64,000 bases of DNA from Nitrosotalea sp. (GTDB lineage Bacteria > Methylomirabilota > Methylomirabilia > Rokubacteriales > CSP1-6), in the NCBI GenBank assembly GCA_035519555.1, contig DATIWG010000050.1, forward strand, positions 20,040-84,039. Reading direction: 5' to 3'. Under the pieces are notes generated by a model. The model saw only the letters and a list, made by a program, of their open reading frames with translations. It did no database searches and had not been told where the DNA came from. Position numbers and translations under genes: made by a program. Numbering within the stretch: the stretch's first letter is position 1; each line of letters starts with the position of its first letter. Below are positions 11,630 through 14,482 of the stretch, piece after piece.

Positions 11630-14482
11630 GTGGCGACGTCGGAAACGGCCCAGCATGACTCGCGGACGGTTCGCCGCGATGTGCTGGGTATAGTCTCGGG
11701 GCTCGTCGACGAGCTCGGCGGCCGGCCCGGCAACCGGCCCGTCGGGCTCGACGACGCGCTCGACCGCGACCTGGGCATCGGCAGCCTCGAGCGCGTCGAG
11801 CTGCTGCTCCGCCTCGAGCAGCGCTTCGGGGTGCGCATCGCCGACGCGGTGATGGCCGAGGCGATCAGCCCGCGCGATCTGATCACCGCCATCCAGGCCG
11901 GGGAGGACCTGGCCCCTCTCTCCGCACCCTCGGCGGTCGCCCCGCTCGTCGAGGGCGTCCCGGCGCCCGCCGGGGCCCGGTCGCTGGCCGACGTGCTCGC
12001 GTGGCACGCCGAGACCTCGCCGGAGCGCGTCCACGTCTTCCTCCGCGACGAGGACGGCGGTGAGCGGCCGATCACCTACGGCGCGCTGTGGCACGAGGCC
12101 GGGGCGGTCGCCGCCGGCCTGAGGGATCGCAAGGTCGGCCACGGTGATACGGTGGCGATCATGCTGAGGACCGAAGCGGCCTTCTTTCATACCTTCTTCG
12201 GGGTTCTGCTCGCGGGCGCGATCCCGGTGCCGATCTATCCCCCGTTCAGGCGTGACCTGATCGAGGACTACGCTCGGCGTCAGATCGGCATCCTCCAGAA
12301 CGCCGCCGTCCGGGCCATCATCACCTTCCCGGAAGCCCTCCGCATGGCCGCGCTGCTCCGCTCCCGGGTTCCCTCCATTCGGGCCAGCGTGACTACGGCT
12401 GATCTCAAGGGGGGCGATCTCACGGGGGACGATCTCACGGGGAAAGGCGGATTCGAGATGAACGCGGCCGGGGATCCGGCCGCCCCGGCCCTGATCCAGT
12501 ACACCTCCGGCAGTACCGGGGAGCCCAAGGGCGTCCTGCTCTCCAACGGCAACCTGCTCGCGAACATCCGCGCCATCGGTCAGGCGATCCGGATCCGGCC
12601 GGATGACGTCGCGGTGAGCTGGCTGCCGCTCTATCACGACATGGGGCTCATCGGGTCCTGGCTCGGCGCGCTCTACTTCGGCATCCCGATCACCATTCTC
12701 TCTCCCCTGACGTTCCTGGCCCGGCCGGCGCGCTGGCTGCACGCCATCCACGCCCACCGGGCCACCATCTCCGCCGCGCCCAACTTCGCCTTCGACCTCT
12801 GTGCGCGGCGGATCACCGACGAGGAGATCGGCGGACTGGATCTGTCGTCCTGGCGACTCGCGCTCAACGGCTCGGAGTCCGTGAGCCCGGCCACCATCGA
12901 GCGGTTCACCCAACGGTTCGCGTCGTCGGGATTCCGGGCCCGCGCGATGTGTCCGGTCTACGGGCTTGCCGAGGCCTCGGTGGCCTTGACGATTCCCTCC
13001 CCCGGGGCCGGACCGCGTATCGACACGATCCGCCGCGCCGCATTGCAGGAAGCCGGTCGAGCGGTGCCCTCCGGGCCGGAGGATCCGACCCCGCTGTCCT
13101 TCGTCTCCTGCGGACCGCCGCTGGGCGGCCACCTGGTGCGCGTGGTCGACGAGACGGGCCGGGCACTCGGCGAGCGTACGCAGGGACGGATCGAGTTCCG
13201 CGGACCGTCGGTGACGACCGGTTACTGGAGGAACGCGGACGCCACCCAGGCGGCGTTACACGACGGCTGGATGGACTCGGGAGACCTGGGCTACCGGGCC
13301 GACGGCGAGTTGTTCATCACCGGCCGGCGGAAGGACCTCATCAAGAAGGCGGGCCGCAACCTGTATCCGCAGGAGGTCGAGGACGTCGTGGGCGCCATTC
13401 CGGGCATCCGGAAGGGTTGCGTGGCCGCCTTCGGCGTCCAGGACCCGAGCGTCGGGACCGAGCGGCTGGTGGTCGTCGCCGAGACGCGAACGCGTGGCTC
13501 GGCGGAGCGCGATCGGTTGCGGGCGGCCGTGATGGACCGGGTGGTGGCGGCCCTCGGCGTTCCGGCGGACGTCGTGGTCATCGCCGACCCGCACGCCGTG
13601 CTCAAGACGTCCAGCGGCAAGGTTCGACGCGGCGCCACACGGGCGGCTTATCTGCAGGGCGTCATGGGCCGGCCCGGGCGCTCGATCGCGGCCCAATGGA
13701 TGCGCCTCGGCCTGGCCACGCTCGGAGCTCGGCTGGCGCAGGCCGCCGACCTGATTCCCGCTCTCGCCCGCGCCGTGTACCTGGGCTCGCTGGCGCTGCT
13801 GACCGTGCCCCCGCTCTGGCTGGCCGTGCTCCTGGCCCCGACGGGCGGGGCCGCCGATCGGGCGACGCGGCGCTGGTCTCGCGCGATCCTCACGATGTCG
13901 GGCTGCGCTCTCCGGCTCGAAGGGGCAGATCATCTCGGCGCCGACGGAGGCCCGATCATCCTGGCCGCGAATCACGCCAGCTATCTGGACGTCGTCATCC
14001 TGCTCGCTACCCTGCCAGGCCGATTCCGGTTCGTCGCCAAGCGTGAGCTCACGAGATGGCCTATCGTAGGAAGCGTGATTCGCAAGGTGGGTCACCTCAC
14101 GGTGCAGCGGGGACAGACCTCGCAGAGCGTGGCCGACGCCGAGCGCATCACGCGCGCGCTGCGGGGCGGCATCTCGGTGCTGGTCTTCCCCGAGGGGACC
14201 TTCCGGCGAGCGCCCGGCATCCTGCCGTTTCGGCTGGGCGCGTTCAAGGCGGCGGTGGACAGCACGTGTCCGGTCGTCCCGGTCACGATTCTGGGGGCGC
14301 GCGACATCCTGCCCGCAGATGCCTGGCTGCCCAGGCCCGGGTCCGTCACCGTCGCGGTGGGCGATCGTATCGCGCCCGACGGCGACACCTGGATCGCGAT
14401 GACGCGCCTGCGAGACCGGACCCGGGCCGAGATCGTCCGTCGTTCGGGCGAGCCGTCGGCCGAGCGACCGTCCACAACCTGA
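11630..14482 (+). CDS. Tri-domain fusion: acyl-carrier domain, fatty acyl-AMP ligase (FAAL), lysophospholipid acyltransferase (LPLAT)
   Basis: N-terminal carrier motif LGIGSLERVELL; AMP-binding core (YTSGSTGEPKGV, Y-GLAE); C-terminal PlsC motifs (ANHASYLD HX4D, FPEGT). GTG start. Confidence 0.85.
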   Translation: MATSETAQHDSRTVRRDVLGIVSGLVDELGGRPGNRPVGLDDALDRDLGIGSLERVELLLRLEQRFGVRIADAVMAEAISPRDLITAIQAGEDLAPLSAPSAVAPLVEGVPAPAGARSLADVLAWHAETSPERVHVFLRDEDGGERPITYGALWHEAGAVAAGLRDRKVGHGDTVAIMLRTEAAFFHTFFGVLLAGAIPVPIYPPFRRDLIEDYARRQIGILQNAAVRAIITFPEALRMAALLRSRVPSIRASVTTADLKGGDLTGDDLTGKGGFEMNAAGDPAAPALIQYTSGSTGEPKGVLLSNGNLLANIRAIGQAIRIRPDDVAVSWLPLYHDMGLIGSWLGALYFGIPITILSPLTFLARPARWLHAIHAHRATISAAPNFAFDLCARRITDEEIGGLDLSSWRLALNGSESVSPATIERFTQRFASSGFRARAMCPVYGLAEASVALTIPSPGAGPRIDTIRRAALQEAGRAVPSGPEDPTPLSFVSCGPPLGGHLVRVVDETGRALGERTQGRIEFRGPSVTTGYWRNADATQAALHDGWMDSGDLGYRADGELFITGRRKDLIKKAGRNLYPQEVEDVVGAIPGIRKGCVAAFGVQDPSVGTERLVVVAETRTRGSAERDRLRAAVMDRVVAALGVPADVVVIADPHAVLKTSSGKVRRGATRAAYLQGVMGRPGRSIAAQWMRLGLATLGARLAQAADLIPALARAVYLGSLALLTVPPLWLAVLLAPTGGAADRATRRWSRAILTMSGCALRLEGADHLGADGGPIILAANHASYLDVVILLATLPGRFRFVAKRELTRWPIVGSVIRKVGHLTVQRGQTSQSVADAERITRALRGGISVLVFPEGTFRRAPGILPFRLGAFKAAVDSTCPVVPVTILGARDILPADAWLPRPGSVTVAVGDRIAPDGDTWIAMTRLRDRTRAEIVRRSGEPSAERPSTT

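Follow-up and report, generated by a model that had tools for sequence, protein, structure and literature searches.

Can one bacterial protein take up a free fatty acid, load it onto a carrier domain of its own and deliver it to a membrane lipid? The question is raised by a gene at positions 11630–14482 (forward strand) of a 64,000-nucleotide stretch of DNA, hereafter the window, which spans positions 20,040 to 84,039 of contig DATIWG010000050.1 in assembly GCA_035519555.1 (Nitrosotalea sp.; GTDB lineage Methylomirabilota, Rokubacteriales). The gene encodes an acyl carrier protein (ACP) domain, a fatty acyl-AMP ligase (FAAL) domain and a PlsC-type acyltransferase domain of the lysophospholipid acyltransferase (LPLAT) type, joined in that order. 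We consider it moderately probable that the product is a self-sufficient, membrane-anchored enzyme that would work in the manner of Escherichia coli Aas, but with a private ACP and a FAAL-type ligase, and would channel free fatty acid into membrane glycerolipid. The evidence comes from the identity of each domain, from the conservation of all three as a unit, and from the company that the gene keeps in distant genomes.

Three domains in one polypeptide

The open reading frame (ORF) runs uninterrupted from a GTG start at 11630 to a TGA that ends at 14482 and encodes 950 amino acids. A GC content of about 70% and the names attached to close homologues place the organism in Methylomirabilota/Rokubacteria. 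A preliminary description of the window had proposed a single polypeptide of this length with a carrier domain, a FAAL-like ligase and a PlsC/LPLAT domain, and the Pfam matches bear this out. PP-binding is matched at residues 38–88 (32.0 bits against a gathering cut-off of 20.8), AMP-binding at residues 124–533 (228 bits, E 1.8e-67, above cut-off) and Acyltransferase (PF01553) at residues 766–887 (96.6 bits against a cut-off of 23, E 1.3e-27). The AF2 model of the complete protein has a pLDDT of 83.7 and a pTM of 0.74, with every domain predicted confidently and an unstructured tether. The carrier, HX4D and FPEGT motifs named previously can all be located in the protein, as can the adenylation motifs (GIGSLERVELL with its serine at position 52, TSGSTGEPKG at 292, YGLAE at 444, Lys664, HASYLD at 782–787 and FPEGT at 853). 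The domain order is likewise the reverse of that in E. coli Aas, as had been stated; the Aas acyltransferase lies at about residues 21–140 and its ligase at about 331–688 (alignment; PMC11416262).

The central domain decides what kind of activating enzyme this is. It occupies residues 119–676 (11984–13657, forward strand) and was delimited by NCBIfam models and by sequence and fold matches in the PDB. The adenylation motifs are found at residues 292–301 (A3), 444 (A5), 550 (A7), 565 (A8) and Lys664 (A10). Directly after motif A5 a MAFFT alignment reveals a 29-residue insertion at residues 456–484 (12995–13081, forward strand), the block that the preliminary description had singled out as a check on FAAL identity. 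The insertion is missing from E. coli FadD and Aas, aligns without gaps to the FAALs 7r7g and 3pbk, and forms a strand-helix-strand element of its own in the AF2 model. We also applied the FAAL criteria of Patil et al. 2021 (PMC8460268), namely the residues that block the CoA pocket and the FAAL-specific helix. Trp331, Pro333, Met338 and Phe386 pair with Trp224, Pro226, Met231 and Phe279 of EcFAAL, and residues 359–369 (PLTFLARPARW) pair with its FAAL-specific helix, T252–R258.

Database comparisons of the ligase agree with these features. The top NCBIfam match is 'fatty acyl-AMP ligase' at 424.6 bits, which is below the full-length cut-off of 600. The 18 best PDB sequence matches are all FAALs or FAAL-like loading domains, among them the olefin-synthase FAAL (7r7e-g, E 2e-93), EcFAAL (3pbk), LpFAAL (3kxw), FadD23, FadD32 and FadD28. 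The AF2 model superposes on EcFAAL 3pbk with a TM-score of 0.89–0.90, and FAALs or FAAL-like adenylation domains fill about the top 40 places of the fold comparison before any CoA ligase appears. Judged by its alignments and its predicted fold, the ligase domain is a true FAAL and not an enzyme of the CoA-ligase or Aas type.

The N-terminal carrier domain covers residues 11–90 (11660–11899, forward strand), as defined by Pfam, PDB sequence matches and the AF2 model. Its failure against carrier-protein models had been named in advance as one result that would overturn the proposed architecture, and the domain passes them. Every PDB sequence match of residues 1–115 is an acyl carrier protein, and Ser52 (codon 11783–11785) pairs with their phosphopantetheinylated serine. 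The model predicts a four-helix bundle (residues 11–28, 52–66, 72–77 and 81–90) in which helix 2 begins exactly at Ser52. NCBIfam ACP equivalogs also match the domain, all below their cut-offs. The PP-binding score is 30.6 bits in the Thiocystis orthologue and 23.6–42 in longer variants of the protein. Between carrier and ligase lies an Ala/Pro-rich, flexible tether at residues 91–118 (11900–11983, forward strand; GEDLAPLSAPSAVAPLVEGVPAPAGARS), which has no secondary structure in the AF2 model and differs in length among homologues.

The C-terminal catalytic domain spans residues 759–939 (13904–14446, forward strand) and was assigned from PF01553, a PDB match and its motifs. These comprise HX4D at 782–787 (H782-ASYL-D787), Arg827 (motif II), FPEGT at 853–857 and Pro884 (motif IV). 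The sole PDB sequence match of the last 270 residues is Thermotoga maritima PlsC (5kym, E 3.6e-18), so that the acyltransferase proposed previously is seen to have the expected motifs and a single solved relative. Identity is 32% to E. coli PlsC over 115 residues and 27% to the transferase domain of Aas.

A putative membrane anchor precedes this domain at residues ~686–756 (13685–13897, forward strand), as judged by Kyte-Doolittle hydropathy (peak 2.0) and AF2 helices. A 50-residue helix (686–735) with a 31-residue hydrophobic core at about 706–736 is followed by a second helix at 739–756, and the position matches the N-terminal segment of PlsC 5kym (residues 1–62). The flanks of the hydrophobic core carry net charges of +4 and +3, and the medians in 50 homologues are +4 and +4. 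By the positive-inside rule, positive charge on both flanks favours an anchor of the monotopic or re-entrant kind, which would leave both catalytic domains in the cytoplasm.

A conserved family and its likely chemistry

Is the fusion a feature of this one contig? The preliminary description had allowed that it might be a mis-assembly of two genes, and this can be ruled out. JGI called the identical 950-residue protein, from the same ORF, on two metagenome contigs that are independent of each other and derive from soil or sediment. The same architecture is present in more than 240 listed clusters at 90% identity, and the colinear ACP-FAAL-LPLAT order is kept in well over 100 separate clusters at 50% identity; the fusion recurs in hundreds of assemblies that include complete isolate genomes. 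A search of 5.8 billion proteins listed 120 clusters at 61–100% identity, nearly all with three domains and from Methylomirabilota. We then searched the 50%-identity representatives exhaustively and inspected the best 150, most of which are full-length colinear relatives of 910–1,000 residues with 36–53% identity. Longer variants differ only in linker length. No reductase domain (NAD_binding_4) was found in the window's protein, in the best ~150 representatives or in the longer variants. The ACP is missing from at most two of the best 150 (P0217 and P0243), which may be truncated gene calls.

Conservation was computed over 50 diverse homologues with 35–51% identity to the window's protein. Ser52 is invariant in all 50 and lies in a carrier motif of consensus D-L-G-L-D-S-L-x-R-x-E-L. 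Trp331, Pro333, Phe386, Lys664, His782 and Glu855 are invariant too. Met338, Asp787, Arg827 and Pro884 are at least 90% conserved, and Gly856 is invariant or nearly so. The invariant residues thus span all three domains, a pattern expected only if the three activities work together as a unit.

The architecture is shared by Methylomirabilota, cultured Chromatiaceae and Acidobacteriota. An acidobacterium of the Vicinamibacterales has a full-length orthologue with 52% identity, and orthologues occur in cultured purple sulfur bacteria of the genera Thiocystis, Thiorhodococcus, Thiobaca, Imhoffiella, Allochromatium, Thiocapsa, Thiohalocapsa, Halochromatium and Marichromatium. Those of the purple sulfur bacteria bear four different product names, and annotations of ACP-FAAL-LPLAT proteins are inconsistent (CoA ligase, PlsC, 'acyl-phosphate G3P acyltransferase', AMP-binding protein). 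A scan of a genome collection with three patterns, all within the FAAL domain, listed 80 loci, mostly generic FAALs, and two of them (L006 and L007) are the only full-length relatives among the matches listed. In the literature, FAALs in fusions or contexts with a 'lysophospholipid acyltransferase' receive one passing sentence in Patil et al. 2021 (PMC8460268) and one in the FAALPred survey of 2026, both without functional study, and we found no characterised ACP-FAAL-LPLAT member. The architecture is not unique to the window; it defines a large, old, multi-phylum and uncharacterised family.

Two organism names are each attached to a pair of diverged copies. Those under Rokubacteria GWA2_70_23 (P0102 and P0103, listed from one assembly) are 68% identical, and those under Thiocystis violacea (P0274 and P0280) are 77% identical. 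Each pair suggests paralogues within one genome, which could differ in acyl or acceptor specificity; alternatively, the two copies may belong to separate strains or reflect a contaminated bin.

How might the three domains work together? A cellular phosphopantetheinyl transferase (PPTase) would modify Ser52 of the ACP, and the FAAL domain would adenylate a free long-chain fatty acid. Because the canonical CoA pocket of a FAAL is blocked, the acyl group would be transferred only to the tethered phosphopantetheine of Ser52. The acyl-S-ACP would then swing on the Ala/Pro-rich tether to the PlsC-type domain, held at the cytoplasmic face of the membrane by its monotopic helical anchor, where the His782/Asp787 dyad would catalyse acylation of the free hydroxyl on a lysophospholipid or on lysophosphatidic acid. 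In sum, free fatty acid would enter membrane glycerolipid at the expense of ATP and without CoA or AcpP, in the service of repair, remodelling or salvage. PlsC-type enzymes and Aas do use acyl-ACP donors (PMC11416262). Genes for a polyketide synthase (PKS), a nonribosomal peptide synthetase (NRPS) or tailoring enzymes were absent from the nine independent neighbourhoods examined, which span three phyla, and this leaves the acyl-ACP without an obvious client except the fused acyltransferase. This three-step chemistry is, we infer, the simplest reading of the domain facts, and its predictions extend to phosphopantetheinylation, transfer in cis, the cytoplasmic topology, the acceptor and a physiological role that stress may induce through sigma54 and a CBS protein may adjust.

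Several observations weigh against this proposal. In characterised FAAL-ACP didomains the ACP is C-terminal to the FAAL (PMC11837247), and here it is N-terminal. The 31-residue hydrophobic helix, if it truly crosses the membrane, would put the acyltransferase in the periplasm, out of the ACP's reach. Neither a PPTase gene nor a gene for the lysophospholipid flippase LplT was found among the window's roughly 45 annotated ORFs, though neither absence bears on the remaining genome. The acyltransferase narrowly misses the generic AGPAT domain model TIGR00530 (95.5 against a cut-off of 102.95), stays at 48 bits where the PlsC equivalog PRK15018 requires 501, and falls far below every PlsC, OlsA or Aas equivalog cut-off. 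Motif III reads FPEGTF where PlsC has FPEGTR, and this substitution may indicate an acceptor other than lysophosphatidic acid. By these sequence comparisons the domain is a member of the PlsC/LPLAT family and not a PlsC orthologue.

In one alternative, activation and carrier chemistry are the same and the acceptor is a membrane lipid other than a glycerophospholipid, for example a lyso-aminolipid (an OlsA-like second step), a glycolipid or diacylglycerol, so that the product would be a specialised lipid class. Among NCBIfam models, the lyso-ornithine-lipid O-acyltransferase OlsA ranks second for the C-terminal domain, the Arg that follows EGT in PlsC is missing from motif III, and the LPLAT family takes in aminolipid and lipopolysaccharide acyltransferases; the supply of aminolipid synthesis by FAALs is an explicit open question (PMC11631085). 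Some neighbourhoods also contain lipid-modifying genes; in Thiocystis violascens, for example, a PEMT/ICMT-like methyltransferase gene lies 7 bp ahead of the fusion gene. Yet the two OlsA scores, 71.7 and 59.1 bits, are far from the cut-offs of 300, better matches are given by the generic AGPAT model and by PlsC 5kym, and the nine neighbourhoods showed neither an OlsB-type N-acyltransferase nor any other aminolipid gene; we regard this alternative as unlikely. A different use of the same parts is suggested by ElbD, which combines acyl-CoA synthetase (ACS), ACP and AGPAT-like domains with a reductase and has homologues in other phyla that lack the fatty acyl reductase (FAR) part and are unstudied (PMC9131029). 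If our family were of this kind, it would serve ether-lipid or neutral-lipid biosynthesis with a reductase supplied in trans. 'ElbD homologues' are commonly assigned by BLAST alone (PMC11868695), and one acidobacterial locus (L033) does have an unfused set of FAAL, ACP-reductase and PlsC-like proteins. The absence of a reductase from the best 150 representatives and the longer variants speaks against an ElbD-like role, with ElbD compared here by its description and not by its sequence. The nine neighbourhoods contain no elbB, elbE or agps-type genes, and acyltransferase activity has not been shown even for ElbD (PMC9131029), so we think an ElbD-like role improbable.

The remaining alternatives concern the carrier and its client. 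The FAAL might load free AcpP, or hand acyl-AMP directly to the acyltransferase, while the ACP-like domain serves docking, regulation or dimerisation. E. coli Aas indeed works with holo-ACP in trans (PMC11416262), the N-terminal side of a FAAL is an unusual place for a carrier, and P0217 and P0243 appear to do without one. Yet an invariant Ser52 within a DLGxDSL..E motif that is conserved as a whole in 50 sequences makes little sense for a domain that is not pantetheinylated, a flexible tether is what carrier domains that swing usually have, and both ACP-less proteins may be artefacts of gene calling. A carrier that does not shuttle acyl groups has, in our estimate, a low probability. The most familiar role for a FAAL, loading or off-loading in a lipopeptide or polyketide pathway, would fit the usual ties of FAALs to PKS/NRPS systems (PMC8460268, PMC11837247) and the olefin-synthase FAAL as the closest solved relative. 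It is made highly improbable by nine neighbourhoods devoid of such genes in three phyla and by a fused partner that is a membrane-anchored acyltransferase of the PlsC type. Among these interpretations, an Aas-like enzyme with a private carrier has the best support.

Genomic setting

A 140-residue stand-alone CBS-pair gene lies immediately upstream at 11189–11611 (forward strand; Pfam CBS, two repeats, E 6e-28), and 42 nt before its ATG a pattern search found a sigma54-like -24/-12 element, cGGCAC-N5-TTGCA, at 11132–11147 (forward strand). Both had been reported in the preliminary description and are present. In every Methylomirabilota locus examined, a CBS orthologue (65–85% identical) stands on the same strand 12–36 bp upstream of the fusion gene. 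It is not adjacent to the Chromatiaceae or Vicinamibacterales copies, so the linkage is phylum-specific. The CBS gene is probably the first gene of a two-gene operon with the fusion gene. As to the promoter, a GGCA[CT]-N5-(T)TGCA element occurs 41–59 nt before the first CBS ATG in three further loci (L086, L087 and L089), whose fusion proteins are 62–76% identical and whose intergenic DNA around the element has diverged. The window as a whole contains 24 matches to the sigma54 pattern, against 14.7 expected; this count is not decisive alone, and the argument rests on the positional conservation in the three loci. A further element with one mismatch (10984–10999, reverse strand) faces an Hsp20 gene that is divergent from the CBS-fusion operon, and two perfect matches lie elsewhere (21457–21472 and 55735–55750, both reverse strand). 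No sigma54 activator gene was found among the window's annotated ORFs.

Downstream of the fusion gene, a DUF308/HdeD-family membrane protein of 191 residues (14503–15078, forward strand; Pfam DUF308, E 6e-9) is followed by a 177-residue ORF with no Pfam match (15071–15604, forward strand). The ATG of the latter, at 15071, lies in an 8-nt overlap, ATGCCTGA, which also contains the DUF308 TGA stop (15076–78); this arrangement is as first described. The DUF308 gene is found downstream only in closer relatives (P0001, and P0013 at 60% identity) and not in the P0044 and P0097 loci. The 177-residue ORF was found only in contigs identical to the window. The CBS gene and the sigma54-like element are kept across the phylum. 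The importance first attached to the downstream genes was slightly overstated, one of them being confined to close relatives and the other to this lineage. Outside Methylomirabilota, no shared neighbour was found in the loci examined.

The wider window looks like a stress-response island. It holds Hsp20, Usp, PCMT, CBS, BON and Lon genes, with at least five Usp genes and an unusual density of CBS-pair genes (at least five stand-alone, plus an M50 protease-CBS fusion; starts at 11189, 15668, 23454, 47004, 48156 and 56832). An operon with a CBS protein of the adenine-nucleotide-sensing type, a sigma54-like promoter and a neighbourhood of stress genes together suggest that expression in Methylomirabilota is conditional and not housekeeping.

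Envelope-lipid genes of the window encode an MlaC-domain protein, an MMPL/RND-type transporter and an LPG_synthase_TM-family membrane protein (24904–25881, 35429–38179 and 42207–43187). A second AMP-binding enzyme, of the CoA-ligase type (53935–55851), lies beside a 2-oxoacid dehydrogenase E1 (52973–53938), its E2 (50825–52000) and a 90-residue ORF (50556–50828), all on the reverse strand. This ORF matches by position a stand-alone PP-binding gene beside E2 in L087, and the segment 50556–55851 may be another carrier-protein-dependent acyl system. The Thiocystis violascens methyltransferase (L091, 5503–5994) ends 7 bp before the fusion gene, encodes a membrane protein that weakly resembles isoprenylcysteine methyltransferases and lipid A phosphate methyltransferases, and has a 4HBT thioesterase nearby. 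A methyltransferase gene and a stand-alone gene for a PlsC-like acyltransferase make up part of the acidobacterial locus L033 (6772–14506), together with an IS481 transposase insertion, a FAAL gene and a gene for an ACP-reductase (NAD_binding_4)-kinase protein. The set resembles the logic of ElbD or of carboxylic acid reductases; we considered L033 as a reordered variant of our family and rejected it, because the set is unfused and belongs to a different system.

Genes of AmmeMemoRadiSam, an orphan system (TIGR04335/6/7, all above cut-off), lie 0–6 kb from the fusion gene in four of the nine independent neighbourhoods, from two phyla (L092 8847–9944, L006 16688–17854, L093 9916–11299 and L087 11354–13446), and are found neither in the window nor in four other loci. 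In Allochromatium humboldtianum the radical-SAM gene of the system follows the fusion gene by 42 bp on the same strand. Near the end of the window, a 427-residue protein (62604–63890, reverse strand) matches several families of bacterial archaeo-eukaryotic release factors (baeRF), with an RNA 3'-phosphate cyclase (61047–62102) and an archaeal-type S-adenosylmethionine synthetase (59782–60975) nearby.

Significance and comparison with known systems

FAALs are usually portrayed as gatekeepers, which steer fatty acids to polyketide and lipopeptide assembly lines. A FAAL fused to a PlsC-type acyltransferase and its own ACP, conserved in at least three phyla, would give these enzymes a part in the primary metabolism of membrane lipids, by an acylation route independent of CoA and AcpP. 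The FAAL found here stands outside a PKS/NRPS setting and has its ACP on the unusual, N-terminal side. A bolder proposal, which we hold to be rather unlikely, is that the family represents a third, widely distributed route by which bacteria bring free fatty acids into their membrane lipids apart from PKS/NRPS systems and with a private carrier. Its acceptor might lie outside the classical lysophospholipids, and its product might then be a lipid species not yet described. In Methylomirabilota the route would be switched by sigma54 and tuned by a CBS adenylate sensor, and the proximity of AmmeMemoRadiSam genes in some loci could mark a functional link. It would stand beside FadD with acyl-CoA on the one hand and Aas/AasS/AcpP or FakAB/PlsX-Y on the other, and would keep salvaged or unusual acyl chains apart from the CoA and FAS-II pools. 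BLAST-based screens for 'ElbD homologues' as a measure of ether-lipid capacity in metagenomes might pick up ACP-FAAL-LPLAT proteins, and a module that leads from fatty acid to phospholipid in one polypeptide could serve lipid engineering. The orthologues in cultured Chromatiaceae make the hypothesis directly testable.

A close functional parallel is E. coli Aas, the 2-acyl-GPE acyltransferase/acyl-ACP synthetase that is partnered by LplT. In Aas, too, one polypeptide couples ATP-dependent activation, acyl-ACP and PlsC-family acylation of lysophospholipid at the cytoplasmic face of the membrane (PMC11416262). Similarity is detectable in both domains, at an identity of only 25–27%. Aas has the transferase first (residues 1–203) and the synthetase second (204–719), whereas our protein has the reverse order. 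A carrier domain is absent from Aas, which relies on free holo-ACP; the FAAL insertion is missing from its ligase, and Aas is a peripheral protein without the hydrophobic anchor. Scores against the Aas equivalogs are 18.6 bits for PRK08043 (cut-off 886) and 183 for PRK08633 (cut-off 1221). The protein would thus be Aas-like in its working, but its domain order, the clade of its ligase, its use of a carrier and its model scores all place it outside Aas.

With the FAALs (EcFAAL 3pbk, LpFAAL 3kxw, olefin-synthase 7r7e and FadD32) the ligase shares every hallmark tested, together with a dedicated carrier in place of CoA. Known FAALs feed PKS/NRPS systems and have their fused ACP at the C-terminal side (PMC11837247); in our protein the ACP is N-terminal, and the client would be a membrane acyltransferase. 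Myxococcus xanthus ElbD likewise joins ACS, ACP and AGPAT-like domains and is the only multidomain protein of ligase, ACP and AGPAT type with experimental work behind it. Experiments in vitro demonstrated the ACS and ACP activities of ElbD, but an acyltransferase activity has never been detected (PMC9131029). ElbD differs by description in an additional N-terminal FAR-like reductase, in its reported solubility and in its elbA-E operon, where our family has no reductase in about 150 representatives and no elb neighbours in the nine neighbourhoods.

The acyltransferase resembles the 1-acyl-sn-glycerol-3-phosphate acyltransferase PlsC (5kym) in its HX4D motif, motif II Arg, FPEG, motif IV Pro and the two helices before the catalytic core. 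Unlike PlsC, it is fused to its own machinery for producing the acyl donor, has FPEGTF as motif III and scores below the cut-off of the PlsC equivalog model. Eukaryotic DIP2, which has tandem FAAL-like domains and acts on diacylglycerol pools, also ties a FAAL-type domain to glycerolipid metabolism (PMC9342972). DIP2 has no ACP or acyltransferase domain and is only about 16% identical to bacterial FAALs, and reconstitution of its reaction has not succeeded; the window's protein scores 14.7 bits against a cut-off of 27 for the DIP2-like AMP-domain model. The family described here would offer a simple bacterial model for the question, shared with DIP2, of how FAAL-like domains act on glycerolipids.

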